DNA of 64,000 nucleotides from a virus (IMGVR_UViG_3300025280_000001:4524-68523), one strand, 5' to 3'. Positions 41,101 to 60,052 are shown, counted from the first letter of the stretch. The notes: generated by a model from the sequence alone, not told the origin. Program-made: numbers and translations.

Positions 41101-44100
41101 GTTGAAGCACACTTATTAGATAAGGCTGATCCTCGTCATAAAGAATATGTTCCTCCGCCCCCACCACCGACAACAGGTGGACACCCATCAACACCGCCAA
41201 GTAAGATTAATGAACTAAGAGAGAAGGCTGGTTTTGAACCTGTAGAAGTAGAACTATCTGGTGATCCAGAAAGTAATTCATTTGTTCCCTTAGATTTTGC
41301 TGAAAGTGTCACAGTCTATCAGACTCTTCAGGAATTAATAGCTAAGGCTGAAGAGGCTGGAGATACAAAACTAGCAAAAGAACTTAAAAGAACACTGTCT
41401 GCATTAAGATTCTTTGCTGAGAACCATCTAGATACTCTTCCTATTACTGAAGCAATTGTTGATATACAGACAAAAACATTAGCTATTACAAAGAGAATGA
41501 ATGAGATAGATGAAGAGTTTATGAATAATGAAAAGTTTAAAGCAAACTATCAAATAGAAGCAGATGCTCAAGTTGTTGCAGTATTATCTACAAGAATAAA
41601 GAACAGTGCTGATAGGGGTAAGATTAAAGAAAATGATGTTGTTCTTGATACAGAATCACAGGAAGCATTATCTTCCTTAGAAGATAGCTATAAGATTAAG
41701 CCTAAGAAAGGTGTATCTCATTGGAAGAGATTAGCTAAAATTAGAACCATGCTTGAAAAGAAATCTGCTAACTTTGGGGCTAAATACTTAAAGGCTAAAG
41801 AAAAACACAACAAAGAGATTACAACCCATAGCGATGAGATAATGAGACTTAAGGAGAAACAGAGATCCGAAATTCACAAAATAAATATGCGTGTTATTGA
41901 AGCTCATTTAGGAGAACATACAGGTCTAACTCTAGCTACAGGTAGAGAAATTGCAGAACAAGTAGCAACGCACCAACTTAAGTTAGCTAGGAAAGAAGCA
42001 GATTGGAAATTCTTTTGGGAAGAACAATCAACAATGACCTTAAATGATTTTATTTTTCAATATCTTAATAACAATCAATATGTAAGAACGAGAATACTCA
42101 AAAAACATGGTACTAAAGAAGAGGGTTATACAAAGAAACAGCTACAAGAATATTGGGATCAGGCTATAAAAAAAGAAAAAGAATTAATTGATCGTCTGCA
42201 TGTAGGTAGAATGATGGCTACCCAAAGAGTTATTAATAACCTAGCTACTGAAATCCTAGAAGAGAAGGGTGTTACGATAGATAACTGGAATCCTGAACAT
42301 AGGTTTACTCTAGATACATTACCAGATCAAAGACTTGCAGCACTTGCTGCGGGTGATGGGGTCACATCTCATATAGAAACAAAACTAGAAGCAGTAACCT
42401 TATTAAGTCAGTTTGCTAGAAGAATTATATATATGCTCAACACTCCGAGATGGAGTGACGAAACAACACTGAAGTGGGATAAGGTTAAAAAGGCATTGCC
42501 ACCGGGTATTAAAAATCTTCGGATAGAGATTGTATTTGCACATGCCCTAACTCCTGACTCTAAAAATAAAGCTAATACAGAAATGCTTGAGGTGTTAGAA
42601 TTAGAGTTTGATGTTGAACTACTAAAGGGAGCGTTAGCGGATCTAATAACATTACTAGATCCCGCAATTAAAGAGCAATATAAATATACAGCTAGAATGA
42701 TTAGAGAGGCTCAAAAAGATCCTACCGATACTCATAGTGAATACAGTTGGTATGCAGCACAGAGAATTGTTACAATGTTATGGGATGCCATGCTACCCGC
42801 TTATCGAGACGAGTTCTTAGCTAATGAAATCCATCCGGATCATATAGGTCGAGGATATAAACTTGTACACAGTAAGGGAGTTACTACTAAGTGGGGAACT
42901 GAGTCTGATTATATTATTGCGGTAGGAGAAGAAGCTAAGAATATGCTTTTAATCTTACCAGAGGGAATAAGAAAGCTTGCTCTTGAAAGGCTTGGTATTA
43001 AAGAAACAGCTATTATTGCTGATATAGATCCCAACACACTTTTAACAGCTATGGCTAGTTTTATGCATAAGAAAACTGCAGCGGATTTAGCAAAATATGG
43101 TAATGGTACAGAGGATTACAATTCAGCCTTTACTACTGGTCGGGGTATAATTGAAATTGTTCTAGATAGATCACCGGGTACTATGAGACGAGTAGTAGAT
43201 AAGTCTGATCCTGAAGGTGTTGTTGATAACTTTACTGAACTTAATGAAACTAGTAAAGAATCCGCAAAACGATTTAAAAAACCAGAAAAAGAAAAAAGTA
43301 AAGTTCTATTACCTCCACATACAGGTGATATAAATATGTTTGGTCCTCTAGAAGAGTGGGGACTTATACGTACCCTTGAGGATGAAGTATTCCGTAATAG
43401 AATTAAATTCTCTGCACATGTAGAGATAACTGATTCTATCAGAAACCAATGGGCTGATCCGAACAGAGTGTCTAATGTTAAAGAAGATGATATGTTTAAT
43501 GTTGGTCGAAGACTTCCGTTTAGACTTACACCTTATATTAATAATAGACTATATAAAGGAACAACACTGGATCGCCAAGAACTATTGGAAGCTTTGTTTA
43601 CAGTACAGTTAGATATGCCAGCAGTAGTACAGTCATTTATTTATGATGCTGTTATTGGACACAGACAATTCTATGCTAGTGAAGCTAAAACTACTAGTGA
43701 AATTATTACTACTGGTTGGGATACAGTGATGCCGTCAACTAACTTGGCTTGGGTGAATATCCTACAACAGTTGAATCCAGAGCTTCTTCAAGCAGAGAAT
43801 GTAGACTCTCCACTTGTACAACTTGTATTGGAAGAGGCATTAAGATGGGAAAACCAAACTGATCCTGATACTGGGAAGACAAGACCCTTCAATGAAATTA
43901 TTAACCAATACAACTATGGAGATCAATCATGGCAAGGTGCTCACCTATTCTGGTTTCTCAATCGAAAAGGTGATGAGTTTATAGCTGAACTACAAAGGAT
44001 TCATGATGAAGGAGAAATGGGTTGGAATGAAGATCTTGAGGATAGATATATTACAACAGCCGTGAAGTGGATACATGAATTATTATCTACTGATAAGGAT

Positions 44101-47100
44101 AGTAGAATGGATATCTTTAGAGACTTATTCAAAAAGGTTGGTATTACTGAAGATACAGACTATGATACTATCCGTACTATGCAAGAAGAGGATGGCAATC
44201 GAGTTAAGATACTAAGAGATGCTTTATTCAAGCCTGGTCCTTTGATGACTTTATATGGTGGCGGTAAAGAAGCACAGATGGTTTATTATAAAGGCGATGG
44301 TCGAGTAGATTTAGTTAGATTAAATGAAGAATTAGACGTTGCTATAACTTTAAAAGATATAGAAAACTTACAAGACTTTATGTTTGGTGGTTTCATGTGG
44401 GAAGGTACAACGATATTGCATGATGCTATGGACTATAGTGTCGAACTAAAGAGAGCAGTATTTAAGTTATTAGCTGTCGAAGGAACTGGTGGTGCCCGTA
44501 GTCAGGCAGCAATAGAATCTGCTAGAGCGGGATTACAGAAAATTTCTGATGATGACGGTGGAGATTATGGTAGAATGCTGATGAGAGCTAGTGATGCCTT
44601 AGTTCTTTTACGAGCTAGAATAGCAGATATATCAGAGTTTACAGAAATTCCCGTAAAAATTATTGAAGAGAGATATGCTACAAGATTAAGGTGGGTTAGA
44701 GGATACCTGAAAAAGAAAGCTAAAGCAAATGAGTTGGTTGATGAATATGATATGGCAAGACTCAATGAGTTTTTATTAGGGGATCGTTTGGGTTGGAGAG
44801 ATGTAGAAAACTTACGAGCACAGAACCTACAAAACTCTGTTGCTCATTATATGAACTTAGATCATATGCGTATTCAAGCACGGATGGAAGGCTATAATTT
44901 TGATCAAGACGATACTATGGGTCTAGAAGAGCTAGCCCTTTACTTTACACAGATGAGATCACATGATTCAAAACGGTGGTATCATACTGTATATGATGCT
45001 ATGAATGTACAGCCAGTTAATGTTTCAGCGTCTAAGATTGCTACTGTATATGAAGGTATAATGAATACAGATAGATTTGCTGCTAGAGTAGAAGAGCTTG
45101 CTAATGATCCTGACGATCCGAAAAGTACATCTCCAGAATTCAATGGTATGTCTCAAGCCGAAGTATTTGCTTTATCGGAAATGCTACAAGAAGAAGGCGG
45201 AGCTCCCTTCGGAATGTGGGATATTAAAGTTAATAATTACCATGCAGCTAAAGAACGGTTTGGTGCTTTAGATGAACGGGGTCAATTTATTAAAGACGCA
45301 GATCGTAAAAAATGGAAGGTTTGGGCAGAACGAGAAATTGAGGATGCACTCCTAAGAGATGAGATGTTATACGAAGCATCATATGGTCCATTAGCTTTAA
45401 CTGAATATGAGCAAGGTGGAGTAGTAACTACTAAGGGTGGAAGAGAGTTTGATATATTCTCTGAGATGGATCCCGAAAGAATGTATGGTACTATTGCACA
45501 AAGATGGCATACTGCTGATAAGGCAGCAGAGGTTGAACATAGACAGATAGTGAATCTTATTAATAAATATGAAGCATTCAGATCTATGGGTACAGAGACT
45601 GAGGCAGCAGGTCGTCAGATTCTAACTAGAGTAAGCCAGTGGAGTGGTATCCCTATTGATCTTCTTCCTACCATTAAAGAGCTGGGTATTAGAATTGGTA
45701 CTAATAGATATCCAGTAGAATCACCTTATACTAGAACCGTTAAACCTTTGGGTGACGAGACTCACGATGTAGATGACTTCATTGGAATTCAAACTGCACA
45801 CCCTGGTGGATATGCTGCAATGAGACCCGCTATTAAGAAGGTAGCATGGGATCAGGTTGGATCTTTAGCTCTCCGTAAATTCTATTATGATCGAAAGATT
45901 AATGATCTAGAGACTAGAATTAATCCATACTTAGATCCAGCAATAGACCCCTCAATACGTCCAGTTGAATCCCTAGAAAATATTTTACCAGAGCACAATA
46001 GAACAGACTTCCCTATTCTAAGTGATAAACAAAATATTCTTTATCCAGAATCTTTAAGGGGTTTCGAAGCAGAAAACTTACTATCGGGTAGAGCCGCTAC
46101 AGTGCAGTCTATACGATTTAAGCTAGAGGAAAAAATAGATATATGGGCAAGAAATCAAGGTTGGGATATTCAGTTTCTAAAAGAACATAAAGAGTTATAT
46201 CTCTCTCTATACTATATGATGAAACTTGATGACATGTTTGGATATGTGGATTCAGGATATAGACCTCCAGAATATGCAGAAGCATGGAATATAATGAGAC
46301 AACTAGAAACCGTTGGTCGAGCTACAAGAGCTAATAAGCCTGGTGAAATGTTTAAAGCTAAGTATGATATTATAGAAAAGATTAGAAAGATATATAGAAT
46401 ATCTCATGGTATGCTTACAAGAACTAGATCTATGATAGATTTACATGATAAGGGTGCTGTATTAGGTACTGTATATGTTCCTGGAAAAGGTAAGATGACT
46501 TATGAAGAAGCTTTAGTATCTGGTATACTAGGTCCTAATGCTTTAACTCCTGCTCTAGAACTAGGTTTACAAGCTGCTGATCTAATGGTACTTGATGCTG
46601 ATAATAATCTTGGAGAATATATAGCCACAACCGAAACCAAGGAAGGTACTCAAGTTATCCAAGGTATAGATAGTAATATGTTAGTTACAAAGCTTCCAGA
46701 ACAGTTTGGATTAGATACTATACTTATAAAGATGTTAGAAGATACTGGTAGATTAACTAAAGAACAAATAGCAGGATACGAAGCTGGCTCTTATAAATCT
46801 ATTATAGATCCGACTGGTAAGAATGGAATAACTAGCTATGAGCTTCTGGGTTTTGTTCAAGAAGTATTTAGAAGAAATAGAGAAGACAGATTGTCTAACT
46901 ATGATTTAGTAATCTTTGAGGTACGTGAGGAATCAGAAGGTAGGTTTACTCCTCTTAATATTCAGGTAGCTTCTAGAAGAGATCATACTGGTGTACAGGC
47001 TATTGTTAAGAGAGATCCTCTCAATACAGGTATAACTTTAACACCCCGATCCTATATTGGTCCAACCAAACGATTTGCTATGACTCCAGAATCTATATTC

Positions 47101-50100
47101 CATGCTTTGAATACTTTGGGTAACTTCCATGCTATAGAGATGATGGAGTATACACTAAGAACGGGTATGAGATTAAATGTACGAGAAAAGGTACAACCTG
47201 ATGGTACTGTTGTGCTTACACCTAGAGAAGCTTTATCAGATCGTATGAGACAGGATATGGGTTTTAGTTTTAGACAAGACAGAAAAAATGAACAGCTTTT
47301 ATATGAAGCCTTTAGATTAATGTTGGGTGAAGATACTCATATGGATTTAGTAGAAGAAACAAGAGAGATAGATGGCAGTAAAACTAAATTCATAAATGCT
47401 CGTACATATATAAATCATAATATAGATATCAAGTTCCATAAAGATGGACCGTCATTCTCTACTAGTGTTCATCGTGCTGCTCTTATATCTCCCTTACAGA
47501 GAGTTATGCAGAGGCTAAACTACTTTGGATCTAATAAATTAAATGGTGACTTAGATGCATTTGTTGAAGCTCGTGAAGAAGATCTACTAATGGTTATAGG
47601 TACAATGATTCGTAAGCCTGAGATTACAGCAGAAGAGATGTCAATAATTCTACCATTTATTATGGAAGAAAAGGTAATAAAGAAAGATGGAGAGTCTACT
47701 CCTGTTCTCGAACACATAAGAGATTTGCAAAGTAGAGCTGAATACTTCCTACAAGAAATTTTAAATGAGCTACGATGGAGAGAACTTTCTAGTACTGTTA
47801 AACACCTACATGAAATCAATACCCCAAAGATTGTTGATAAGCGTACTGGTAGGATTATGAATTCATGGCAATCAAAAACAATACCATTTGATTGGATTGC
47901 TAGATCTTTCTGGGAAAATGTTAGTGAAGAATCATTTAAGGTAGATTTAAATGAAACAGAATTTTATGAACAAGTATATAAACCACATGCAGAAAAGATA
48001 TGGGATAGTGTTAAAGCAACATACTCCAAGACTCATCATAAAGATATATTAGATTTTCTTGAGCGACATAAAGAAGAGCTTATGGAATTAAGTTATAAAA
48101 ATGCTTTAGAAACAATGTTTAATGAAAACCTAGAGGAAGAACCACGAGCAGAATCTGTCTTACTAAAAGAAGATATGGATGCTAGGTGGAGAAAAATACA
48201 AGAGATAGATCCTCAGAAAATTAAACAGCTTAGAACGAAAGCGGCATTACTCAAGAGATGGGAAGGTAGTACCACTATTTATCCACACCTTGTACATGTA
48301 TTAAGTAGTATTGATACGCTTGTTAAAGATAAAGTAATAACCGAACAGGTTGCAGATGCTACCCGCTCAATGTTGGCATGGATGGCTGAAAAAAATCCCC
48401 AGATATTTGTTAACATGAAATTTGAATCAAAAGAAAATATCCCAGGAATATATGTAGCGTTTGCTCAAAAGGTAAATCAAGCTGAATCTGGAGTTACCTT
48501 CGATGGTATATATAGAAACGATCCTGAAGCTGGGGTAAGATATGAACCAGATGAGGACATGAGAACAACAAAGAATTTGTTGTATCTAACTGGACTATCG
48601 AATGAACAAATAGATGCAATGCCTGAATTCCAAGAAGGATGGTTAGATGGTGTGGATGCTATGTCCTATGTTGTAGGATTTGATATGGAAACAACTATTG
48701 CTGCTACTCCAGAGGGTAGAGATATTCTTATGGCATCTATAAAATCTCGTACAGATGGAGATGCAAAAGGTACCTATGAAAAGAATCTATGGACAGCTCA
48801 ACCTATACCAGGATATGCTAATATCCGAAACGAAATAGAAACTATTAAATCAAACCATACACGAATAACTCTGTCTGAAGATGGTACACATTATCACGCT
48901 GTTGGTAACCCTGATAAAAAATATGCCCGTGTTACACAGGCTATTAGGGGAGATGTCGATCCTAAAGAAATGAACCAGAAAGCTATGGATATCGGTACTA
49001 ATATAGATGTAATAGTAAGAGACTTCTTTGCTGGAGAGCTAAAGGGGTATCTGAATTATCATACTGATGGTAACCCACATATAAAAACCGAAGAAATATT
49101 TGATAGTTTTATCGAACAACTAGAAGAACTGAAGCAAAAATTTGACCGTAATGGTGATGAAGTTATAGCTAATAACATAGTATTATATAGTGATGAACTT
49201 GAAATTGCTGGTACTGTCGATCTGTTAGTATACAATGAAGATAAACAAACTATTAGTATCTATGATATGAAAACTAAACGAAGAGGTGCAAAGGCAGGAG
49301 CTGGGCGTAGTGGTTTGTTATATAATGTAGATACAAAATATGAAGCTGGAAGTTATAGAGATAAGTGGACGAATCAATTAAATCTTTATTCCATATTATT
49401 AAACCACACCCACAATATAGATACAGAGACTCTTGGTATTATACCAATAGCTGTTGCTTATGATGGAAGAGTGAAGGCAAGAACTACAGATGAACTTACT
49501 CTATATGAAACAGAGTCTATCAAAGAACTTCCAGAAGTTACATTACTAGCTAGAGATGAAGGTGCTTCAAGAAATACACTAGCACAAGATGGTGGTAGAA
49601 TAACTCAAGAGCAAGCTCAAGATATGTTGAACACTCTTGAGATGCATCAGAATCGTGGCGGTAAGGTAGTTACTCATAACGGTAATGAGTTTGACTTATT
49701 AACACTTGGGCATATAGCAGATAATCCTAGACAAGCCGCTAGGATTGCATTAAGAGGTTATGATATAATGCAAATACTTATGTATGCTGAACCAGAACCT
49801 GGCAGATCACTAGATTGGTTTGGATTAAATGATGCTGGGCTAAATACAATAGGTAGAGGTAAGATAGACGAATCCGGATTAGCTCCACTATATTCACAGC
49901 AAATGCTAGGGCAAGAATTAGAAGACCTTACTGGAGAGGTATCATCTGAAGCAATAGCTAAAATCAAAGAGATGGACCCAGCAATGGCTGGAGATAAATT
50001 ACGCATTTATGTAGAAGACGATGCAAACTTAACCGCAGATCTTCTTGTTGGACTATGGGAAAAGAGTCAATCAGATAATAAAGCTCTTGATATTACTAAC

Positions 50101-53100
50101 GCTAAGGGAGCAACTAGGGTTACTATGCATAATGCACACCCATCTTGGAAGACAGCTTCTGAGATAGACTCTGTTCCAGGATCTGTAAGAAAGTTTAACA
50201 ACAACGGTTTGATTACACCACGCTCTACACATATACCTGGAGATCCTTCACTAGATCCTGCATATCTTATTGGGTTGGATGCTGCAAAGCTTTCAACAAT
50301 GGATACAGCTTCTGCTGTTGAGATTATTTTCCATGAGGTTATGGAGGTTGCTATCTTAAAGTATATGAGAGAAGATACCGCAGCGTTTGATAATCTCGTA
50401 GAAATGTTAGAACGTAAAGAAAATATAAAACTATTGGAGAGAATGATATTAGCTCAATCTGGTGGTAAGAGCGGACCCTCAATTAAAGCAAGAATGGAAT
50501 ACTTTACAAGTTCGCCAACTGAACTTATTGCCGCCTTTGCTTCATACTATGTAGCCGCTAAAGTATTGGGAGATCCAGAAGGAGTTGTAGCTCCAATTAT
50601 AAATGATCTTCATAAGTCTTCAGCTTGGAGTAAGCTAAAGGAATTTATGAACAAAACATTTAGATGGGTTGGAGATATCTATAGAGATATGTCACATGTA
50701 TTTGTTTCATTCATAGATGAGCCAGGTGGTCAGCGTGAGTTTGATGATCTTATGACCCTATTAAATACAGTGTTCGGTCTAGATCAAGAAGGTAATATGC
50801 TATTAGATGCTAATAATGATTTATCTAAACCACGTTATTCAAAAGACTGGAGATATGATACGCCTTATCAACTAGCCGAAGAACCAGCAGAAATATTAGA
50901 GGGTGGGGATAAAGAGTATCTAAAGAAATATAATAAGATACAAACACTCTCGGATGAGTTAGATGTACTGATGGCAAACGGAAAGGGTAGTTCTAAAGAA
51001 TATCGAAACAAGAGTCTATTATCCCGTAAGCTTCATGGAGAAATGGTTCAGTATGGATATGTTAATAATAATCCAAAAACCATGATAGGTACTGAAGGTG
51101 GTGAAGGTGGTCGTCATGTTCAAGGTCTTACTAGAGGAGAACAACTATCGTGGGAACAAATTATACGTAGAGATTGGTGGCTTGGTAGTGGTCCCGATGG
51201 ATTAGCTATTCTGAATTCAGGAAACATATATCTCAAGGCAGCCTTTGCGCATATGACAAGTCAAAAAATGTCGGACTATTTAGGAGGGCACCTATCACAG
51301 GGAGTGGGTGGAACCGCTAGATGGTTTGCTGATTTCTTTGATAGGAGTGGGGTTTCTAAATATGTTATGGATAATGCAAAGAAATTTATTCTTGCATCTT
51401 CTGGTGCAAATGTTACATACAATAGTCCATTTGTAATATCAGTTATACTAGCAAATATGATGGTTGATGGGGCGACTATTACTAGGAGTTCAGTATTACC
51501 ACACTCAAAGGGTATTGTTTCTGTTCAGGCAGCACATAGAAAAGCAACAGGATTTGAAAAGGCTGTTGGTGATACATTCTCACGAGATGTAATTAAACTA
51601 TTTGAAAAAAGCCCATACTATAAGAATGCACTTGAGAGTGGAGAAACTAAGGGAGATCTAGTACAGAATCTTCAAACTGAAATTATTAAGATTCTAGTAG
51701 ATCAAAAAGATAAAAGAGATTATAGCGGTATTGAAAAGTATGATGATGGTATTCAAAAAGGTATAAAGAATCTAGATGCTACATTTAGAAGTTTTGTTAA
51801 TCAGATATTTGGAATGTCCAAAGAGCAGGGTAGAGCTTATATGGAAAAAGATACTGAAATGGTTCCTTGGTTAGTTAAATCTACAAACACTGGAGAAACA
51901 TTACATGCTGCTACCCAAAGAACTAGACCTGCACTTAAGAAATTATTTACGGATAAAATATCTTCAGCAAGTAAGGAATATATTCATCCTGTGTTAGCGT
52001 ATACGGCTGGATTATTACCTAAACCATCAAGATTAAATAAATCATTAGAGATGATGCAAATTATTCATCCCGCATGGTATAGGTTTATTGCAACGAAAGC
52101 TCTGTTAAATTATAGAGCTATGGCTAATGATCCTACAATTAGTTTAAATGCTTTCGTAGCTTTAACAATGAATGCTACTGTTAGAAGTGCATGGAATAAA
52201 GTTACATCTGATGCTATGTCTGCTAAGGGTGATAGACATCTGATGTGGAATGATCTCGATGGTTTTGCTGTTAAGGATCCTAAAGGAAAACCTTATGATA
52301 TGAATGAGGTTAAAGCTAAGATACGAGAGAGATATGATATGTTACTTGATGGTGAAGCTCTTGGTGATGATTTTGGTTTAAACAATGTTATCGACGAATT
52401 GTTTGATCTCAATAATCATCTAGATCCCCATGATAAAGTTAGATCATTTTATGTTGCTTCTAAGACTAGAAGAAATAAAGACTTCTCTAGTGTAATGGAT
52501 TTTATTCTTAATACATTCCTAGAGCGAATACACCACCAAGCTTACTTTGTTTATGATAGTATATTTACTCCTAAAGTATCTGAAGCACTAGCTATACCTG
52601 AAATTAGAAGTTATTTAGAAACTAACCCCGCTATACTAGCTAGAGCTGTATCTCGTTCACAGGGTCATAGAGCTCATGAGATAGATATGTTTAAGGAGAT
52701 TACTAACACAAATCTAGATTTCAGTGAACTACTAAGTCTATTTGGGGAGGTTGCTAGTACTAAAGGTAGTGTCTTTAGGATGACAGATGGTAAAGGTAAA
52801 GACCTTACCGAAAAAGAACAGGCACAATTATCTCATGCTTTAAATGTAACCTTTAAACGTAAGTATGAAGTACTCAGAGGCGTTGCTGCTAGATATGATA
52901 CAAGCGAAGATACCTTCGCAAACAGCTTAGGAGAGGGTTCTAACTGGATTGTTAAGTCTGTATACGGTACTAACCTAGCTATGGCTACTTCTGTAGTGGA
53001 AGGAAGCATGGCTGGCTTATTAAGTACTATAGGATATAACGATGTAAAGGGGCTTATATTCCCGTTTTTAGCCTATTTAAAGCCCCTTATGAGGCAGGAT

Positions 53101-54855
53101 AATGAGGTTGCTAGGGGTATGATATACGGTCTTAGGCTTCTAAAGGGCGATACAACACCAGGCTTGGTTGATCTAGATACTAGTATACACCCCGCTGATA
53201 CCGATCTTTACTTCGCCAAACAGCGTAAGAATTGGTGGGCAAGACGACCCGAAGCAATTACACACCACGCTTCACGAGTTAATGAACAACTTAAGTCAAT
53301 GATTGATTTGCAAATGAGAAAGTTCATGTATGATAAACTTAATAAGGGGCAGTGGAGAGATTTAATTAATCTTATTGCCTCTGGATCTAGAGATGCTAAG
53401 ACAGGTAAGCTACTAGAACACCTTGAGTTTGAAAAAGATCCCGTTGCTTGGAGAAAACGAGAGGAAGCAAGGGTAATGGCAGCTAATAGGAAGCTTCCTG
53501 CCGACCAACAACAGGCAGCAAGAGAAAAACCAGGCTATGACCTAGAAGCATTGCTAGATGATAGCAAAGCTAGCTGGAGGTTATGGAAAAAGCTGGCAAC
53601 GGAGAGTGGATGGGGAGCCAAACAGTGGAGATCGGCTATGATTGCCGCAAAACACGGTCTTATGACCCACGAAGCTCTAGATAATTTTATTATTATGGAA
53701 TCTGAAGCCCGTACTATAGCAAAAGCCGAAGGTTACGGGAAGGAGGGGTTCTTTCACCTCTATAAAATGAGACAGTGGACAGAAATGTTTGCTAAAGAAG
53801 AAGATGCAGCTGGTATGCTGGATGTATATGGTAATACACGTAATGCTTTACAAGAATTTATAGAAATAGTTATGGTAGCCCCTAATATTCTAGACTTGAA
53901 TGTAGTCCCAAGTGCTTTGTGGGCTATACTTCACCAATATAGAACATATCCAATCCTATTTACTGCCCAAAGAATTGTTAGAGACTCATCTAACTATGAT
54001 CCCTTTACCTGGTCTTTAAGAGTTGTATCTAATTTGCTCCTAGATATGCTATATACTCTATTAACAATGGTAGCTGGTGGTTATAGAATACAAGATATGC
54101 AAGATGACTGGGAAAAAGAACCTGCGTCAATGATAGCATTATTAGCAACACGGCTACCCATGTTTGGTTTCTATGGTTCAGCTGCATTTGAGCTAATGAA
54201 TCTTGTTGCATCAGGTAGAAAGGGTGCTGTAATGGCTCCTGTATCCCTTGCAGGGCTTGCAGGATTCCTTGGAAACTTAGTTAATGTTGGTAAATCAGGC
54301 ATAGAAGCAGCTATTCCAGGTGGAAAATTATGGGATACCGATGGTGATACACAAGACCTTATTAACTTATTAAGAGTCATTCCTTATTTAGGTGAGTCTG
54401 TAGTTAGGATGGGACTACATCAAGCACTTCGTAGTAAACAATCCAGAGGTGCTATCACAAAATATGGACAGAATAGAGAGTTTTTCAACTTTGGTCTGAC
54501 ACGAAAGCAAATGATGGATCAACCTAAGTATTACTTAGCAGAGCTTATAGGTGAATTAGCTCCACACCTTATCCCCGAAGATATACAAGACTTGGATGTA
54601 GAAGATTGGGTAGCCATTAAATCAGGAGTAGAGTCCCTGCCCCTTCAGCAGCCCGAAGAAGCAACTGGTGTTGATACTCCAGTCGGAACGACTCCAGATC
54701 CTGACCCCTTCACAGCGGCAACAGAACGCTCTCTACGGGCTCCGAGTACCCTCGGACTGGGCAAGCTAGACAAATTCATCAAAGCTCCTATGCCGACTCC
54801 TAAGGGGATTACGGGAGGAAAGCGAACTTGGGACATACAAGATAAAATCGACTAG
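38158..54855 (+). CDS. giant polyvalent virion protein: gp16-like ejection protein with N4-vRNAP-like RNA polymerase, DEDDy exonuclease and PD-(D/E)XK nuclease domains
   Basis: 5565 aa; DQSWQG, RDALFKPGPLMTLYGGG, VYDAM; FDMET/HNGNEFD/YVEDD; AGTVDLL..IYDMKT..QLNLY; Gly/Ala hydrophobic segment near the N-terminus. Confidence 0.75.
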   Translation: MVRPRQSPADYLPPLPGPSPDDMFHMGSLDRELDAGYYSKIPEAPLEAWGEDTLYSSKTIHESQKPYQVESINLATGDYQIGPLSLLESNRLGMALVHTGGMWGSNAQNTNLVASMMFAGRRELAGTFMALDEDMEKNLKNFISPLAYSNWLKGVNVHLPELDKPSTYIPVRTQHFEPMFIGEAWEQFNPNDLFLEEPHPDYTPDKAWALMWEKNPGFMNRISKLGANEEYFADAKNEHEWMHNANMLIELNYITKSKMWSDDTSWWGKNVSGQLYTFVVSGILNEPDMVGEMLVGLLLTAATAGIGGVALTAKIATYMRKGVKIMDELAELRTFVSKVLRMSRVTNFLPSAIPHTFMTRGGKVALKSRWFNPFANKGRNIFMANAAEGALTGTLAEIGNQRRKINWELQDEYDWEMVAWQGGLESIITPFINPAFVLGMKGLQRGSMRTMQFSSQLMTELTGTDIDLGAKLPDVVKNIVKVWGQPESATDRITLDILGNMAWKNLENMLGSLDADGRKVTGQRLGQILAMLLEDGKLDSLQGLETTLELMIKEATVRKDDGTTYIDHKKMDLPMAVAKLAAIAAKKRGLTADEIGTHEATAFFFIHGERIASERNKKNIKRKDGSEPVGDNKWTAPDIITEALGGTEIDIAVFFDEAMRAEVDEELTLGGLDPKFASKSQVAAAWEKAMVKRGATFAKRASAIIDEQEKLIKEVSELIEAARQALDIREGDASYYMNELVASDPELKRRLVELENFTNDLQALFNQISEIRALRESDLHVKDQTQANSMLDIALTSDRVGGMMARLKLIAKALNIDVKGISKISDMVAILKQRVSQDERFDLEAFKPLAEHLSLELSENLAVITEEQSNLEKVLIDNLFRTIANYHNVYKNSSPHVIDQTIDGVKIDRQFQAIVNSIMRVNDSNYEVLNIDNMTNTGEWNVTESGTKTDTTEPIFLTDKILLKDKKSGDVLSKGEGTIHHVEAHLLDKADPRHKEYVPPPPPPTTGGHPSTPPSKINELREKAGFEPVEVELSGDPESNSFVPLDFAESVTVYQTLQELIAKAEEAGDTKLAKELKRTLSALRFFAENHLDTLPITEAIVDIQTKTLAITKRMNEIDEEFMNNEKFKANYQIEADAQVVAVLSTRIKNSADRGKIKENDVVLDTESQEALSSLEDSYKIKPKKGVSHWKRLAKIRTMLEKKSANFGAKYLKAKEKHNKEITTHSDEIMRLKEKQRSEIHKINMRVIEAHLGEHTGLTLATGREIAEQVATHQLKLARKEADWKFFWEEQSTMTLNDFIFQYLNNNQYVRTRILKKHGTKEEGYTKKQLQEYWDQAIKKEKELIDRLHVGRMMATQRVINNLATEILEEKGVTIDNWNPEHRFTLDTLPDQRLAALAAGDGVTSHIETKLEAVTLLSQFARRIIYMLNTPRWSDETTLKWDKVKKALPPGIKNLRIEIVFAHALTPDSKNKANTEMLEVLELEFDVELLKGALADLITLLDPAIKEQYKYTARMIREAQKDPTDTHSEYSWYAAQRIVTMLWDAMLPAYRDEFLANEIHPDHIGRGYKLVHSKGVTTKWGTESDYIIAVGEEAKNMLLILPEGIRKLALERLGIKETAIIADIDPNTLLTAMASFMHKKTAADLAKYGNGTEDYNSAFTTGRGIIEIVLDRSPGTMRRVVDKSDPEGVVDNFTELNETSKESAKRFKKPEKEKSKVLLPPHTGDINMFGPLEEWGLIRTLEDEVFRNRIKFSAHVEITDSIRNQWADPNRVSNVKEDDMFNVGRRLPFRLTPYINNRLYKGTTLDRQELLEALFTVQLDMPAVVQSFIYDAVIGHRQFYASEAKTTSEIITTGWDTVMPSTNLAWVNILQQLNPELLQAENVDSPLVQLVLEEALRWENQTDPDTGKTRPFNEIINQYNYGDQSWQGAHLFWFLNRKGDEFIAELQRIHDEGEMGWNEDLEDRYITTAVKWIHELLSTDKDSRMDIFRDLFKKVGITEDTDYDTIRTMQEEDGNRVKILRDALFKPGPLMTLYGGGKEAQMVYYKGDGRVDLVRLNEELDVAITLKDIENLQDFMFGGFMWEGTTILHDAMDYSVELKRAVFKLLAVEGTGGARSQAAIESARAGLQKISDDDGGDYGRMLMRASDALVLLRARIADISEFTEIPVKIIEERYATRLRWVRGYLKKKAKANELVDEYDMARLNEFLLGDRLGWRDVENLRAQNLQNSVAHYMNLDHMRIQARMEGYNFDQDDTMGLEELALYFTQMRSHDSKRWYHTVYDAMNVQPVNVSASKIATVYEGIMNTDRFAARVEELANDPDDPKSTSPEFNGMSQAEVFALSEMLQEEGGAPFGMWDIKVNNYHAAKERFGALDERGQFIKDADRKKWKVWAEREIEDALLRDEMLYEASYGPLALTEYEQGGVVTTKGGREFDIFSEMDPERMYGTIAQRWHTADKAAEVEHRQIVNLINKYEAFRSMGTETEAAGRQILTRVSQWSGIPIDLLPTIKELGIRIGTNRYPVESPYTRTVKPLGDETHDVDDFIGIQTAHPGGYAAMRPAIKKVAWDQVGSLALRKFYYDRKINDLETRINPYLDPAIDPSIRPVESLENILPEHNRTDFPILSDKQNILYPESLRGFEAENLLSGRAATVQSIRFKLEEKIDIWARNQGWDIQFLKEHKELYLSLYYMMKLDDMFGYVDSGYRPPEYAEAWNIMRQLETVGRATRANKPGEMFKAKYDIIEKIRKIYRISHGMLTRTRSMIDLHDKGAVLGTVYVPGKGKMTYEEALVSGILGPNALTPALELGLQAADLMVLDADNNLGEYIATTETKEGTQVIQGIDSNMLVTKLPEQFGLDTILIKMLEDTGRLTKEQIAGYEAGSYKSIIDPTGKNGITSYELLGFVQEVFRRNREDRLSNYDLVIFEVREESEGRFTPLNIQVASRRDHTGVQAIVKRDPLNTGITLTPRSYIGPTKRFAMTPESIFHALNTLGNFHAIEMMEYTLRTGMRLNVREKVQPDGTVVLTPREALSDRMRQDMGFSFRQDRKNEQLLYEAFRLMLGEDTHMDLVEETREIDGSKTKFINARTYINHNIDIKFHKDGPSFSTSVHRAALISPLQRVMQRLNYFGSNKLNGDLDAFVEAREEDLLMVIGTMIRKPEITAEEMSIILPFIMEEKVIKKDGESTPVLEHIRDLQSRAEYFLQEILNELRWRELSSTVKHLHEINTPKIVDKRTGRIMNSWQSKTIPFDWIARSFWENVSEESFKVDLNETEFYEQVYKPHAEKIWDSVKATYSKTHHKDILDFLERHKEELMELSYKNALETMFNENLEEEPRAESVLLKEDMDARWRKIQEIDPQKIKQLRTKAALLKRWEGSTTIYPHLVHVLSSIDTLVKDKVITEQVADATRSMLAWMAEKNPQIFVNMKFESKENIPGIYVAFAQKVNQAESGVTFDGIYRNDPEAGVRYEPDEDMRTTKNLLYLTGLSNEQIDAMPEFQEGWLDGVDAMSYVVGFDMETTIAATPEGRDILMASIKSRTDGDAKGTYEKNLWTAQPIPGYANIRNEIETIKSNHTRITLSEDGTHYHAVGNPDKKYARVTQAIRGDVDPKEMNQKAMDIGTNIDVIVRDFFAGELKGYLNYHTDGNPHIKTEEIFDSFIEQLEELKQKFDRNGDEVIANNIVLYSDELEIAGTVDLLVYNEDKQTISIYDMKTKRRGAKAGAGRSGLLYNVDTKYEAGSYRDKWTNQLNLYSILLNHTHNIDTETLGIIPIAVAYDGRVKARTTDELTLYETESIKELPEVTLLARDEGASRNTLAQDGGRITQEQAQDMLNTLEMHQNRGGKVVTHNGNEFDLLTLGHIADNPRQAARIALRGYDIMQILMYAEPEPGRSLDWFGLNDAGLNTIGRGKIDESGLAPLYSQQMLGQELEDLTGEVSSEAIAKIKEMDPAMAGDKLRIYVEDDANLTADLLVGLWEKSQSDNKALDITNAKGATRVTMHNAHPSWKTASEIDSVPGSVRKFNNNGLITPRSTHIPGDPSLDPAYLIGLDAAKLSTMDTASAVEIIFHEVMEVAILKYMREDTAAFDNLVEMLERKENIKLLERMILAQSGGKSGPSIKARMEYFTSSPTELIAAFASYYVAAKVLGDPEGVVAPIINDLHKSSAWSKLKEFMNKTFRWVGDIYRDMSHVFVSFIDEPGGQREFDDLMTLLNTVFGLDQEGNMLLDANNDLSKPRYSKDWRYDTPYQLAEEPAEILEGGDKEYLKKYNKIQTLSDELDVLMANGKGSSKEYRNKSLLSRKLHGEMVQYGYVNNNPKTMIGTEGGEGGRHVQGLTRGEQLSWEQIIRRDWWLGSGPDGLAILNSGNIYLKAAFAHMTSQKMSDYLGGHLSQGVGGTARWFADFFDRSGVSKYVMDNAKKFILASSGANVTYNSPFVISVILANMMVDGATITRSSVLPHSKGIVSVQAAHRKATGFEKAVGDTFSRDVIKLFEKSPYYKNALESGETKGDLVQNLQTEIIKILVDQKDKRDYSGIEKYDDGIQKGIKNLDATFRSFVNQIFGMSKEQGRAYMEKDTEMVPWLVKSTNTGETLHAATQRTRPALKKLFTDKISSASKEYIHPVLAYTAGLLPKPSRLNKSLEMMQIIHPAWYRFIATKALLNYRAMANDPTISLNAFVALTMNATVRSAWNKVTSDAMSAKGDRHLMWNDLDGFAVKDPKGKPYDMNEVKAKIRERYDMLLDGEALGDDFGLNNVIDELFDLNNHLDPHDKVRSFYVASKTRRNKDFSSVMDFILNTFLERIHHQAYFVYDSIFTPKVSEALAIPEIRSYLETNPAILARAVSRSQGHRAHEIDMFKEITNTNLDFSELLSLFGEVASTKGSVFRMTDGKGKDLTEKEQAQLSHALNVTFKRKYEVLRGVAARYDTSEDTFANSLGEGSNWIVKSVYGTNLAMATSVVEGSMAGLLSTIGYNDVKGLIFPFLAYLKPLMRQDNEVARGMIYGLRLLKGDTTPGLVDLDTSIHPADTDLYFAKQRKNWWARRPEAITHHASRVNEQLKSMIDLQMRKFMYDKLNKGQWRDLINLIASGSRDAKTGKLLEHLEFEKDPVAWRKREEARVMAANRKLPADQQQAAREKPGYDLEALLDDSKASWRLWKKLATESGWGAKQWRSAMIAAKHGLMTHEALDNFIIMESEARTIAKAEGYGKEGFFHLYKMRQWTEMFAKEEDAAGMLDVYGNTRNALQEFIEIVMVAPNILDLNVVPSALWAILHQYRTYPILFTAQRIVRDSSNYDPFTWSLRVVSNLLLDMLYTLLTMVAGGYRIQDMQDDWEKEPASMIALLATRLPMFGFYGSAAFELMNLVASGRKGAVMAPVSLAGLAGFLGNLVNVGKSGIEAAIPGGKLWDTDGDTQDLINLLRVIPYLGESVVRMGLHQALRSKQSRGAITKYGQNREFFNFGLTRKQMMDQPKYYLAELIGELAPHLIPEDIQDLDVEDWVAIKSGVESLPLQQPEEATGVDTPVGTTPDPDPFTAATERSLRAPSTLGLGKLDKFIKAPMPTPKGITGGKRTWDIQDKID

Positions 54856-55468: not shown

Positions 55469-57433
55469 ATGAAAAGTCCTTCTTCCCCCGCAAGTGGAGA
55501 CCCCACTTGCAGCCTACTTCTTCCCGAAGTAGCAAGTATTTTAGATACTTACGGCAGCGATAAGTTACTCGCTGCCGCAAAATTGCTGCGAAAGGGCGGT
55601 ATGGGTAATCACGATGTGGTTAACCAGCTCGTCAATGATGTAGCCATTCATGCTGGTCTGACTGGTGAGAGTGGTGGTACAGCCGCAGCAGTTGCAGTAT
55701 TTACCTACTGCAAGGTCATGGCTCGTAAGCATGGTGTTCGTCGCATGACGGACAAAGCACCATTGTTTGAATCTGAAGTGCCAGGTACACGCCGTTTCGT
55801 TGGCTCACGCCGACCTGACTGGTCGCTGGACTCAGCATCTGAAGGTTACGTAGGCGAGAAAGTAGCTGCTGTTCTGAAATGGATATCAGCTAAGGGTTTC
55901 AAGGTTCATCAAGCTTTTGCTGCTGAACTTCGACTACTCCCCCGTGGAGTTCTTTGTACAAAGCCTAACAAAGACTACCGTGACTTAGATACAGGCGAAC
56001 CTCTAAGCCAAGCACAGTCAATAGTGACAGCACTAGATTATGCTGCAGAAGCAGGAGATCGTCTCGTATATTGGATCGTCTTTATGGATTTGGATGGACG
56101 TATTTATTATGTCGCTCCAATTTCACTGCAAGCTGCAGACGGTGTAAAAGGATTAGTATGCCTACCAGAAGCGAAAGCTCTAACCGACCAAGGTTGGGCT
56201 GATCTGTGGTGGAACCACTCAAAGGAGTGGGGAATCCGTGACATGCAAGACTGTCGAGAAATCGTCAGCTCTGGTATCGTTGCGTACCACGCAACTGGTG
56301 GCAAGCTAGACGCATACGCCCATGCGATGCACACTGTACAAGCAGACGATACCAATATGTACCAACTACCAGTTGGTCTCGATGAGAACTTCTCATCTGC
56401 GCTGATAAATGCGGGACTTTCTGGTTGTGAAACCTCAGCTCAGAACTCTGGTCTCTTAAGGTTACCTGACGGTAGCTATACAGAAGGTTGGAGTAGTACG
56501 AGTAAGGAAATGAGTACTGTGGAACTTGTTGATGAGATTCCTGTCGATAAGCGTAAGCCATTCATTAAACCGGGTGGCACCACACTATCTTATAACTCTG
56601 GTACAGAAACCGCAGCTCTAGCTTTCATGTTTGGTAAAAAATGTGAATATGCTTTCAAGGATACCTTGCATATGAAATGGCAGGTCTTTAGGAAAGCAGC
56701 TAAAAGTAAGCCGCTACGTCTCGTAAAAGCCTTGCTCAACAAGAAGAATACGGATGTTAACGCTCACAACTGCATGATGGTAGCCTTAGAATTCTCAGGT
56801 GCCATAGAAGAAGCATTAGATAAAGCTTTGCCAGCAACGCTAGGTAATGCCTCGTTCTTGAATGATGTGTCAGCATCGTGCCAAGAGCAAGGACTGCCGC
56901 GTGAATGGACAACTCCAATGGACTTGACTATTAAGGTCCTTCCCTATCGCCCAACTAAAGAGACCATATCTGAGGGTAAGCGAAAAGGTAAATTGGTTAC
57001 GGTAAGGCTCGCCGCTGGTATTAATTGGACAGAAACCCGTGGTGGTCGCACAAGGTCGACCATGTTACACGTAGCATTTATATTAAACGATGGCGACTTG
57101 TCACTAATGCCTCAATTGATTCAGAGTATTGAAGCTGCTATACTTCAAAAAGCCATGTATGATTTGATTCAGATGGCTATAGATATATGGCTGTCTTCTG
57201 CCCATGACTGTATGTATGCTCATCCAAATGACATTCGTGTTATAGACCGTGTGTTGAGTAAAGCATTTATGTGGGTTATCAAGCGATTCAACTTGGAAAA
57301 AGTCTTCGCCCATGTTGGCGTTGGCGCTGTCTATCCTGATGGCACTCCTGTCGTTAGGTCTAATCGTGATGCTATACTTAATCGAATCTCTAGTGAAATG
57401 AATTTGTGTGGTCTCCCCGCACCAATTAAGTAA
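55469..57433 (+). CDS. divergent, N-terminally short T7-superfamily RNA polymerase
   Basis: DLDGRIYY, PVGLDENFSS, RKPFIKPGGTTLSYNSG, PQLIQSIEAAIL, AHDCMYAHP in canonical order. Confidence 0.85.
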   Translation: MKSPSSPASGDPTCSLLLPEVASILDTYGSDKLLAAAKLLRKGGMGNHDVVNQLVNDVAIHAGLTGESGGTAAAVAVFTYCKVMARKHGVRRMTDKAPLFESEVPGTRRFVGSRRPDWSLDSASEGYVGEKVAAVLKWISAKGFKVHQAFAAELRLLPRGVLCTKPNKDYRDLDTGEPLSQAQSIVTALDYAAEAGDRLVYWIVFMDLDGRIYYVAPISLQAADGVKGLVCLPEAKALTDQGWADLWWNHSKEWGIRDMQDCREIVSSGIVAYHATGGKLDAYAHAMHTVQADDTNMYQLPVGLDENFSSALINAGLSGCETSAQNSGLLRLPDGSYTEGWSSTSKEMSTVELVDEIPVDKRKPFIKPGGTTLSYNSGTETAALAFMFGKKCEYAFKDTLHMKWQVFRKAAKSKPLRLVKALLNKKNTDVNAHNCMMVALEFSGAIEEALDKALPATLGNASFLNDVSASCQEQGLPREWTTPMDLTIKVLPYRPTKETISEGKRKGKLVTVRLAAGINWTETRGGRTRSTMLHVAFILNDGDLSLMPQLIQSIEAAILQKAMYDLIQMAIDIWLSSAHDCMYAHPNDIRVIDRVLSKAFMWVIKRFNLEKVFAHVGVGAVYPDGTPVVRSNRDAILNRISSEMNLCGLPAPIK

Positions 57434-57529
57434 AGGACTCTTATTCTTTCCCTCTCCCTATGCCCAGGTCAGGTAGGTGAGAGGGAGGATGTAATAGCCC
57501 TTGTTGCTATTAGGAAGGAGGTTACTGTT

Positions 57530-57808
57530 ATGGCAGTAAACCCTTACATCGGTACCTTTACTGAACTGTGCTTCAGTAATGGTATAATCTCAATACGGCT
57601 TCGTGTCATGTTCAATGATAATGGAGAGGTGTTGTTCTCAGAGGTGGTTTGTATGGAGTCTTCGAAAGACTGCACTAAAGCCCTGCTTGCTAAGTGGCAT
57701 GCTTCACATCCTGGTGTGAACATATCCTTTGTAGAGTGGGTTAATTTTAGTGACCAACAACCACCTCCTCCTCCAACTACCATGGATTCGCCCATGTTTG
57801 GAGGATAA
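57530..57808 (+). CDS. hypothetical protein
   Basis: AAGGAGG RBS; followed by a terminator. Confidence 0.65.
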   Translation: MAVNPYIGTFTELCFSNGIISIRLRVMFNDNGEVLFSEVVCMESSKDCTKALLAKWHASHPGVNISFVEWVNFSDQQPPPPPTTMDSPMFGG

Positions 57809-57829
57809 CTAAGGGGGATGGGGGAGACC

Positions 57830-57869
57830 AGGGGGCACAGGATCTAGGTCTTGTGCCCCTCTTTTTTTT
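57830..57869 (+). terminator. intrinsic terminator
   Basis: GGGGCACAGGAT..GTCTTGTGCCCC followed by a T8 run. Confidence 0.88.
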
Positions 57870-57991
57870 ATAAGCGACGGTTTATGATGCGTCCGCACTA
57901 CCGTGCAGACTTGGCGAGGGGGCGTAGGTTCGGGAGTGCGGGCTGTAACCGTGCCGAGGTAACCGACGAGGCTTCAATGGAGTACAGAACC

Positions 57992-58222
57992 ATGGCTAAC
58001 GATACGAAAGTAGCGAAAGCGAAAGTCTACAGACCCAAGGGTAAGCCTGCAAGGGCTACCAAGGACCTTACAGCAGCTGAAGCACAGGACCAAGCGGACC
58101 AGTGCGTTAGTATGCAAGGGACCTACCAAGAGTGGAGCATGAAATCATGCGTAAAACTCAAGAATAGGGCAGCAAAGGCTGGCGTAACGCTCGATATCAA
58201 TGACTTGTACAAGGGTGCATGA
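57992..58222 (+). CDS. small basic hypothetical protein
   Basis: GGAG RBS before ATG 57992 (MANDTKVAKAKVYRPKGK...); followed by a terminator. Confidence 0.65.
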   Translation: MANDTKVAKAKVYRPKGKPARATKDLTAAEAQDQADQCVSMQGTYQEWSMKSCVKLKNRAAKAGVTLDINDLYKGA

Positions 58223-58258
58223 AGCAGGGGGTGTCTGTAAGGGCACCCCTGCTTTTTT
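58222..58258 (+). terminator. intrinsic terminator
   Basis: AAGCAGGGGGTGTCT-GTAA-GGGCACCCCTGCTT followed by a T run. Confidence 0.85.
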
Positions 58259-59390
58259 CTTTTCTGCTAACACTGCACGACTCTCGCAAGAGAGTATGCT
58301 ATAGCTCACGCTCTCAAGAGGAGTACAGTGTTAGCAGAAGGGAAGAAAGATATGGACAATCGACACTGTCCAAGAAAAGTGTTGGATGCTGACTTGTGAG
58401 GGCGGAACATCCCTAGATCCACAAGGTTCATATCCTAGGTATGAGCAACAACAGCAGTCACAGATTCAAACCACTGTTCCTTCTTGGGTAGCAGCAGAGC
58501 TACCAAGAAGACAACAAGAATATAGGTCTGGAAAGGACCCAGGTTCCTACCTCGGTAGGGAGAAGACTGTTGGCAACGACAGTCACTAATCCGAATTAAC
58601 CTTTCCTGAGGCGCACCTAGTATAAGACAGGTGTGACAGGTGAGACAGATGGGCACTTCCTGCGGGATGCGGTCTGTCCCTGTCCTCATGCACACATGCG
58701 TGTGTGTGTGAGGATAGACACTTTTGATGGACGTTATGATAGTCCGTTAGCTTTACACCAGCTAAAGGTGTAGTTCAAGAGCACAAGATGCTAACTCTTG
58801 GAAGGCAGAAGTATTACGATCCAATGGATGTGACATGGAGGAAACGCCCAGATATGGGAACACACTCCGTCGTTGAAATAATACACGGTGGTCCCCTCAC
58901 ATCCAACTAATAATCGGGGAGTAGCAGTAAGGGTCTCCGTTCGAGTAACCAAGATATTCGGAAGGACTTTGCATCCGTACGCTTGGATATCTGCTACTTC
59001 CCTTTAACTAATGCTCGACGGAGCAGTTCGTGGCTGAATAATCTCTTCAGTAAGGAGATAAGGCACACAGTAGACCGTGGTGGTCTGACCAATGCACATA
59101 ATGTGTGAGGTCATCCTCGTAACTGAGGATAAGGTGATAGATGGTTGTAACAAATAATATTGCTCCTCTGTCTTGTAGGTAATAAAAGAATCCTACCGAA
59201 CACAATATACTTTCTGCTACCTGATCAGTAGTGGGACTGGGATAATGCCCCAGTGCAGATACGTCCAAACTGCGACAACAAAGCGGACGCAATATACAGA
59301 GTTTTTGCTGTGCTGTGACCTCTCTACAAAAGGTGAGATGCTCCGGCTTAGTCCACCATTGTTTAATAGACCATAAACGGACTACAAACT
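58255..59390 (+). ncRNA. candidate large structured non-coding RNA (family not recognised)
   Basis: no credible ORF; roughly 20 back-to-back stems, GNRA loops, + strand G-T wobbles, long-range pairings. Confidence 0.5.
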
Positions 59391-59405
59391 AACAGGAGGT
59401 ATCTT

Positions 59406-59666
59406 ATGACGATGCACACAAGAGGACTGGAATCAGCACCCCCAACAGAGATTATTCAACTAATTGATGGGGAATATGTTAAGAGAGCCCCAACCAAAGA
59501 GGAACTGGCACGTATGCCTGTACTTCAGATGGTAACAGGATTTACGTGTGACCACTGTGGCAGCACAGACGTAGAAGAAACAGGGCTACATAAGAGTAGC
59601 TATGGTCAATGGATAGTAACTAAGTGTGGTAACTGTGATGTTACCGTGATGTACAAGACAGAATAA
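59406..59666 (+). CDS. small Zn-ribbon protein
   Basis: AGGAGG RBS; CDHC...CGNC. Confidence 0.7.
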   Translation: MTMHTRGLESAPPTEIIQLIDGEYVKRAPTKEELARMPVLQMVTGFTCDHCGSTDVEETGLHKSSYGQWIVTKCGNCDVTVMYKTE

Positions 59667-59677
59667 GGAAACAACAA

Positions 59678-60052
59678 ATGGGAATACAATATCCATATGT
59701 AGAGATTGCTGGTGAACCAGAGGTCAGAGGCAAATGCAGAGTCAACCTATGGGCAGGCAATGGTGATTATACTACAGTATACAAGGGTTTAATAAACCAA
59801 GAACAACTAAGGGATACGCTGATGCCTATCCTAAAGCAGTACCCTGCCATTAGAGTGAGGGTAACGGACATTAAAGCTAGTGACAAAGACTATCTCCATA
59901 TCTTTAGGATACGAGATACTCGTGAGGCTGTCACTCCGATACGATCGTTCGTAAGAACACACAATGAGGTACCTAATCCATTCAGAAATCGTAAGCGATA
60001 CCAGATGGTGAACCCAAATGCAACGGTATCCTTTGAGTCCCTTGACCTATAG
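59678..60052 (+). CDS. hypothetical early protein
   Basis: AAGGA RBS, 124 aa. Confidence 0.65.
   Translation: MGIQYPYVEIAGEPEVRGKCRVNLWAGNGDYTTVYKGLINQEQLRDTLMPILKQYPAIRVRVTDIKASDKDYLHIFRIRDTREAVTPIRSFVRTHNEVPNPFRNRKRYQMVNPNATVSFESLDL

Follow-up and report, generated by a model that had tools for sequence, protein, structure and literature searches.

Weinberg et al. (2010, PMC2864571) described the manA RNA as a riboswitch candidate; they reported it from marine metagenomes, from T4-like cyanophages and from two gamma-proteobacteria, often within potential 5' UTRs. In a cyanophage genome paper it appears beside the wcaG and glnA RNAs (PMC9964418). A preprint reports that manA RNAs assemble in vitro, several of them into decamers and one into an icosahedral cage of 60 subunits (10.64898/2026.07.01.735769). 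Our search of the literature on manA function after 2010 found nothing beyond this 2026 preprint, and over that time manA has remained an orphan riboswitch candidate. Two other systems invite comparison with the locus described here. GOLLD and ROOL are large, structured, phage-associated RNAs whose function is not known, and phage T7 has a non-coding concatemer junction similar in length to the region discussed below.

The DNA analysed here (the window, 64,000 nucleotides) is bases 4524-68523 of a 68,523-base virus record in IMG/VR, of the class with direct terminal repeats. The two ends of the record have 127 identical bases in common. These are probably an assembler overlap, and on that reading the record does not show the physical genome ends. 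All of the sizeable ORFs are on the + strand. Matches to PHROG and Pfam families include a primase/helicase, a DNA polymerase, a ribonucleotide reductase, a T7-type portal/adaptor, a major head protein, a tail protein and a T7-type large terminase (PF22530, phrog_38), which is at most about 40% identical to the terminases of cultured T7-like phages. The source phage is an uncultured marine T7-like podophage. The terminase is followed by several large ORFs, a 654-aa protein, two small genes, the gap that is the subject of this work (58255-59390) and a series of small ORFs. The gap, by far the largest of the genome on a crude ORF map, is thus located between the late (structural) genes and the small-ORF cluster. 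Each of the two small genes before it is closed by a terminator-like hairpin (57831-57860 and 58227-58250). The second of these, with 10 pairs (6 GC) and a T run on the + strand, resembles an intrinsic terminator and ends a 76-aa gene (57992-58222). On the far side, the small-ORF run begins at 59406, after an AGGAGG site; this ribosome-binding site and the ATG of an 86-aa gene (59406-59666) occupy 59394-59408 (+). We add in passing that one of the large ORFs after the terminase, 38158-54855, is 5565 aa long and that neither of its halves matches a Pfam family. Its sole match is a 160-residue exonuclease-like PHROG stretch (phrog_298, E = 6e-10), and it gave no match to virion RNA polymerase families.

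A preliminary description of this DNA took the gap to be ORF-free and densely base-paired, and proposed it as a single novel large non-coding RNA. The first two of these points are borne out. The longest ORFs in 58255-59390 have 67 aa (+) and 86 aa (-), and seven ORFs from the gap that were compared with Pfam and PHROG gave only sub-threshold matches. The five stem pairs that had been quoted all lie where they were placed, and three named hairpins (58480-58510, 58565-58584 and 58681-58716) read as described. A repeat finder reports 58252-58284/58317-58349, with 33-nt arms that are 82% complementary, and also 58368-58382/58718-58732 and 58916-58927/58991-59002. Folding z-scores were computed against dinucleotide shuffles. 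For 58255-59011 (+) z is -7.18 and none of 20 shuffles does as well, a value far beyond shuffles and beyond coding DNA of the same genome (22 windows of 290 nt: mean z -0.81, sd 0.95, minimum -2.51). Within and beyond it, 58348-58634 reaches -3.98 (0 of 200 shuffles as good) and 58718-59011 reaches -2.86 (1 of 200), while 59207-59405, at -1.62 (13 of 200), is not significant. Windows of 150 nt have a mean z of -3.19 in the upstream part vs -0.99 in 102 coding windows (Mann-Whitney p = 4e-4, an approximate value because the windows overlap).

The + strand folds more stably than the - strand (-406.1 vs -374.7 kcal/mol), and the abundance of G-T pairs had been read as a sign of a + strand RNA. 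This sign proves unspecific, because the flanking coding DNA has a + over - folding bias likewise (Wilcoxon p = 4e-4); the asymmetry is therefore a property of genome composition and not of the gap. The strand of the RNA is settled as + because the manA match described below is on that strand. The region 58255-59390 is non-coding and unusually structured, and a genuine structured RNA is encoded on its + strand.

The comparative support comes from one full-length relative, one truncated relative and tables of contigs. The lineage is a rare one. Among 5.8 billion proteins, the homologues of the 654-aa protein form two clusters, of 80% and 55% identity, and a metagenome scan gave two loci. L003 (6051 bases, the 80% relative) is the only relative that spans the whole gap, and L004 (3673 bases, the 55% relative) stops about 50 nt into it. 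Searches of IMG/VR by protein (the 654-aa protein, its three-row alignment and an alignment of the 76-aa protein) found no relatives, and exact DNA patterns from manA, its 3' extension and the junction of the terminator with the first hairpin found no match there. GenBank phages gave neither a DNA match to the region nor a tblastn match to the 654-aa protein, and blastn of the region against 120 IMG/VR manA loci gave short patches only (E >= 0.25). A separate observation concerns 57861-57991, the leader of about 130 nt of the 76-aa gene (ATG at 57992). Its conservation in L003 and L004 exceeds that of the surrounding coding DNA, RNAalifold predicts 38 pairs in it (2 compensatory), and a second conserved RNA, or else a promoter element, may lie here.

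No family signature had been recognised in the gap, and this needs correction. Rfam identifies manA (RF01745) at 59012-59206 (+, 195 nt), over the full length of the model (1-192 of 192), with 78.6 bits vs a gathering score of 55.2 (E = 2.6e-18). It is the only Rfam family above its curated cut-off in the whole window, and a search for a second manA-like copy in the genome found none. The conserved manA elements CUGAAUAA, UAAGG and GUGGUG are all present. The copy in L003 scores 69.3 bits and is 90.3% identical. Three conserved manA words, combined into one gapped pattern, retrieve at least 120 loci from IMG/VR, and Rfam assigned 18 of 18 of those submitted to it to manA, with 122-197 bits, so that the present copy is by comparison a divergent member. 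For GOLLD, ROOL and other large RNAs there is no Rfam match in 57400-59800 at E <= 10. The same search gave seven further matches, to unrelated families and none at even half its gathering score; the kinds seen below threshold are five microRNA precursors and also a lncRNA region, a snoRNA and an sRNA. ARAGORN found no tRNA or tmRNA in the whole window.

Adjoining the 3' end of manA are three conserved hairpins, at about 59213-59235, 59236-59254 and 59263-59288, in a segment (59207-59290, +) that is 78.2% identical to L003 and lies outside the Rfam model. When manA and these 84 nt were compared between the window and L003 using RNAalifold, 82 pairs were predicted, 5 with compensatory changes, 8 with one-sided changes and 0 broken. 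Three of the five compensatory pairs are in manA, namely in the first hairpin, in the closing helix (GUUCG/CGAAC to GUCCG/CGGAC) and in one inner hairpin. The 3' hairpins hold the other two, together with two one-sided changes and no broken pair. Contigs from other samples carry paired changes within the same runs, 59095 C>T with 59105 G>A and 59141 A>G with 59171 T>C. These comparisons show that the predicted manA fold is present and is kept by compensatory change. Judged by its sequence, manA is the one family-level RNA of the gap, a divergent member with a lineage-specific extension of three predicted hairpins at its 3' end.

From the end of manA to the ATG at 59406 there are 199 nt with no terminator-like site between. 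No conserved expression platform of the riboswitch type is visible: manA is not followed by a terminator, and the predicted pairing of 59257-59262 with the region of the ribosome-binding site loses one base in L003.

Two hairpins upstream of manA are likewise conserved. HP1 (58252-58349, +) is a long hairpin with 33-nt arms, and the 150-nt window covering it has z = -9.65. At its base a U-rich tail is paired with the purine tract AAGGGAAGAAAGA. Of the stem, the lower part is conserved; the apical 50 nt or so are specific to the present genome, and L003 caps the lower stem with a GAGA loop in their place. By a position-by-position count, used here instead of a MAFFT alignment, the 12 pairs of the lower stem comprise 3 compensatory, 1 one-sided, 2 broken and 6 unchanged relative to L003. 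The 5' arm is kept in L004, and 11 pairs of the preceding terminator-like hairpin (58227-58250) are kept in both relatives. The second hairpin, HPc (58625-58685, +), is a two-tier GACAG-repeat hairpin. A tandem 9-nt unit, AGACAGGTG, repeated 2.7 times (58625-58648), forms the 5' arm and is followed by inverted copies, giving three direct and two inverted copies of GACAG; L003 has one copy fewer of the 9-nt unit. With 96.1% identity to L003 over 58635-58685, it is the most conserved of all the segments compared, and it is unique in the window. The 19 pairs of this 51-nt hairpin are all invariant and thus give no covariation information. A 20-mer of HPc matches two unrelated high-GC contigs (L005 and L006) inside coding DNA, which we regard as chance. 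The alignments show that HP1 and HPc, as predicted hairpins, are conserved between the window and L003.

The remainder of the gap behaves quite differently between the two genomes. The gap has 802 nt in L003 vs 1132 nt in the window. Identity to L003 is 83.6% in the RNAP-like gene (that of the 654-aa protein), 73.7% in the 76-aa gene and 94.1% in the next-but-one gene. The variable block 58350-58622 (+), which contains several hairpins, 58480-58510 and 58565-58584 among them, is missing in L003, where 58348-58622 has no counterpart. Similarity to relatives stops directly 3' of a 16-bp CA/TG-rich hairpin (58681-58716, +). The variable block that follows (58718-59005, +) contains a three-hairpin domain, a hairpin at 58825-58905 and a Y-shaped hairpin at 58916-59002; L003 has here an unrelated sequence of similar length (320 nt in the window and 315 nt in L003 for the replaced block from HPc to manA). 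A last variable block (59291-59393, +), with the stem TAGTCC/GGACTA (59349/59379), is also replaced in L003. The identities over 58686-59005 (53.5%) and 59291-59393 (49.6%) are low, the former at the level of unrelated sequence, and in local comparisons their scores are matched by 87 and 62, respectively, of 300 shuffles. As neither block has similarity above that of shuffles, they have been replaced and not worn down.

In all, three stretches amounting to about 700 of 1136 nt are missing or unrelated in L003, although the neighbouring genes are 74-94% identical. What is kept is the terminator, the 5' hairpin, the 51-nt hairpin, manA, the three hairpins 3' of manA, and the ribosome-binding site with its ATG. 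The gap of L003 nevertheless folds well (z = -6.0, and -2.36 for its own specific block). The blocks between the conserved elements are thus shown to be swapped or lost among close relatives and yet to be more structured than coding DNA. Since 58348-58622 is missing there, the long-range stem 58375/58717 has no 5' partner in L003. Homologues collected via the flanking genes support HP1, manA and the 3' hairpins by compensation and speak against the long-range helix, and the proposal of one novel large non-coding RNA is not supported, its architecture not being kept over the whole length.

Further variation is seen in other samples. Parts of the region occur in 24 sequencing runs, 23 of marine or seawater DNA and one a cold-seep metatranscriptome (share 0.05). 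Four of these runs were examined, all of them as contigs, in which the ends of molecules are not visible and parts without coverage are uninformative. In X17, the summed depth is 66-181 over manA vs about 5-25 in the flanks, and 3-8 contigs carry manA. The manA part runs into unrelated sequence, with loose ends before 59030/59031 and after 59213, and its flanks are unrelated in contigs of X15, X17 and X24. Break points in the other samples fall at 58549/58554, 58717/58718, 59213 and 59395. The variant at 58549/58554 has a 39-nt insertion that by eye is like the apical part of HP1, the contigs of X13 and X17 diverge from the window after 58717/58718, and the loose end at 59395 matches L003. As a self-contained module with changing flanks, manA suits the reading of a free RNA no less than that of a cis-regulator. 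Small changes are also found within the hairpins. In X17, all three of the listed changes in hairpin 58480-58510 are in its 6-nt loop, and in an X15 variant of HPc the apical part alone is changed. X15 also covers 58908-59027 with six listed substitutions, of which four keep a predicted pair and two break one, no more than transitions would give by chance.

The RNA library contributes a single contig (X24, 163 nt, depth 53), which covers 59009-59140 only, with three differences. Its manA part is preceded by 31 unrelated nt, and it may derive from DNA. It gives a weak hint that a close relative of this manA is expressed somewhere, and says nothing for the present locus. With one RNA library among the 24 runs, no RNA reads show the locus to be transcribed.

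The surroundings of manA in other viruses are informative in two ways. In three of the 18 loci assigned by Rfam, manA and one to three tRNA genes form an array on one strand, the tRNA genes being 2-138 nt from manA (L040, 2878-3155; L045, 2401-2959; L057, 2795-3072), and in two of these three a tRNA begins 2-7 nt after manA. This position within tRNA arrays fits a stand-alone RNA gene. Secondly, long gaps are rare at manA loci. Fifty of the 120 listed loci extend for 1500 nt or more to either side of manA, and in 27 of the 50 no ORF of at least 70 aa runs over manA. According to a crude ORF heuristic, the ORF-free gap in these 27 has a median of 438 nt (64 upstream, 102 downstream), and in one of the 27 it is 1100 nt or longer. 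The 789 nt before manA in the present genome, against a median of 64 nt, are therefore unusual for the family, and the upstream 750 nt are not explained by the biology of manA elsewhere.

Transcription signals were also sought. On the + strand, terminator-like sites are found at 57831-57860 and 58227-58250, and none from there to 59800. The only strong host-type promoters found on this strand are three consensus sigma70-type sites, at window positions 63913 and 1451 and at genome position 1959. They consist of TTGACA, 16 nt, and TATAAT or TACAAT, with the TG of an extended -10, and the sites at genome 1959 and window 1451 have upstream sequence in common. Within the gap the search gave no promoter, the best sigma70-like sites matching 9 of 12 positions, and no repeated motif of the phage-polymerase type was found in the gaps of the genome. 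Two candidates were discarded: TGCTATAGC, an extended -10-like sequence in HP1, is lost in variants, and TTATAAGCGA, which by eye is common to the X24 contig, has a frequency no higher than chance.

The proximity of the gap to the RNAP-like gene had suggested a system of RNA polymerase and non-coding RNA. The 654-aa protein (55469-57433) has a single family match, 83 residues of phrog_414, "RNA polymerase" (E = 9e-12), and no match among PDB sequences. An AlphaFold model from the three-row alignment has a mean pLDDT of 38 and is unusable. Some of the invariant residues look by eye like motifs of T7-type polymerases. The gene adjoins the gap in L003 too, and in L004 as far as that sequence reaches. 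Both are part of a GC-rich island (54.5-59.6 kb, 0.46-0.475 vs 0.35-0.41 elsewhere) that spans the C-terminal end of the 5565-aa ORF, the 654-aa gene, the two small genes, the gap and the 86-aa gene. The support for such a system consists of this adjacency and the common island. Co-occurrence does not bear it out: manA is found in at least 120 IMG/VR loci, and the 654-aa protein in none there. As manA is common and the 654-aa protein is found in two clusters only, the two are not generally coupled.

On the basis of these observations, we consider that the gap is, on balance, probably a mosaic untranslated leader or RNA operon, transcribed rightwards, with manA as its functional core. The region would be transcribed together with the downstream genes, and manA would fold by itself. 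It might then act in cis on the small-ORF operon, or as a processed, free RNA that assembles with itself as other manA RNAs are reported to do in vitro. The exchangeable hairpin blocks could have generic roles that require structure but no particular sequence, for example in shielding a long untranslated RNA from nucleases or Rho, or as processing sites. Points against this reading are the negative searches for transcript reads, a promoter and an expression platform, and the unusual length of the gap for a manA locus. Of the large-RNA reading put forward in the preliminary description, the structured + strand RNA has stood; the one novel large RNA is not supported, and manA is known. Besides manA there are about 900 nt of hairpin-rich sequence, part of it conserved as hairpins and part exchangeable.

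It is possible, though unlikely, that the upstream part (about 58255-59005) works as DNA and that manA is merely adjacent. It could hold the genome ends with signals by which a T7-type terminase packages DNA or processes concatemers, a replication origin, or a region in which a protein binds the GACAG repeats. The setting suits such a role, since the gap is at the junction of late genes and small ORFs in a phage with a T7-type large terminase, and since the record does not show the true ends if the 127-bp overlap is one of assembly. T7 itself has a non-coding concatemer junction of similar length. Break points of recombination cluster in the gap, and its most conserved segment is HPc, with direct and inverted GACAG copies. 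However, stems kept by compensatory change point to RNA, as do the G-U pairs that add to the + strand fold. The wholesale replacement of blocks would be odd for packaging signals, and beyond the 9-mer array there is no family of direct repeats of the kind that borders terminal repeats.

Somewhat less probable again is that everything in the gap beyond manA and its 3' hairpins is functionless spacer, left over from recombination and from insertions in decay, with hairpins that are due to local inverted duplication and not to selection. That the blocks are dispensable in relatives would fit, some of their z-scores (-2.4 to -2.9) are only modestly past the coding background, and the pairing-neutral substitutions in 58916-59002 (4 of 6) are at about the level expected by chance for transitions. 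But phage genomes of such size are tightly packed and no other gap comes near this one in length, the conserved HP1 and HPc keep their pairs by compensation or unchanged, and the region folds with z of -7.2 here and -6.0 in L003 despite the differing sequence.

We also offer a more speculative reading, which we regard as doubtful. The gap might be a hypervariable cassette locus, in which a fixed frame (HP1, HPc, and the divergent manA together with the hairpins 3' of it) accommodates interchangeable modules of folded RNA, not the same from one co-occurring strain to the next. It would be an RNA-only operon expressed early in infection, perhaps by the putative divergent single-subunit RNA polymerase that adjoins it in the GC-rich island. 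The modules would be scaffolds or decoys and might, for instance, be carried in a manA cage or associate with it.

Least probable of all, and in our view very unlikely, is that the whole 1.1 kb is one large non-coding RNA, of expanded manA type or like GOLLD and ROOL, with HP1, HPc, manA and the 3' hairpins as core and the variable blocks as exchangeable peripheral domains. In its favour, conserved elements stand at the 5' end, in the middle and in the 3' part, the L003 region folds with z = -6.0, and the block between HPc and manA differs little in length between the window (320 nt) and L003 (315 nt). Against it, conservation extends to no long-range helix (58375/58717 being partnerless in L003), about 700 of 1136 nt are absent or unrelated there, manA is found alone with other flanks, the unit is not closed by a terminator and has no Rfam large-RNA match, and the contig tables suggest that the blocks assort independently.

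The mosaic reading can now be set beside the known systems. The T7-like leader or concatemer junction resembles this locus in having a gap of about 1 kb, at a late/early junction, in a phage with a T7-type terminase, but the present gap has no strong host-type promoters. With GOLLD and ROOL the gap has in common the features named at the outset. Unlike them, it has no conserved architecture over its whole length, most of which is exchangeable among close relatives, and it cannot be claimed as a new GOLLD-like RNA. The likeness is one of analogy only, through the manA cages reported in vitro. In the phage tRNA arrays that include manA, it is similarly a self-contained RNA module, co-oriented with RNA genes; here its neighbours in the gap are plain hairpins, and the window has no tRNA.

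The closest comparison is with the manA motif itself. As in that family, 59012-59206 belongs to a marine phage and precedes a gene on the same strand. It differs in that this phage is a T7-like podophage, as against the T4-like cyanophages named in the original account (PMC2864571), and in that the locus adds three conserved 3' hairpins and 789 nt of ORF-free, structured sequence upstream. The locus thus contributes a divergent manA from a marine podophage of the T7-like kind, a conserved extension of three hairpins at the 3' side of manA, and an upstream region that is unusually long, rich in structure and variable between strains. The RNAs that assemble into cages (10.64898/2026.07.01.735769) belong to the same Rfam family, the assembly described being that of other manA RNAs. 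If the present manA also oligomerises, the comparison with RNA-only complexes of the GOLLD and ROOL type would be apt in function.
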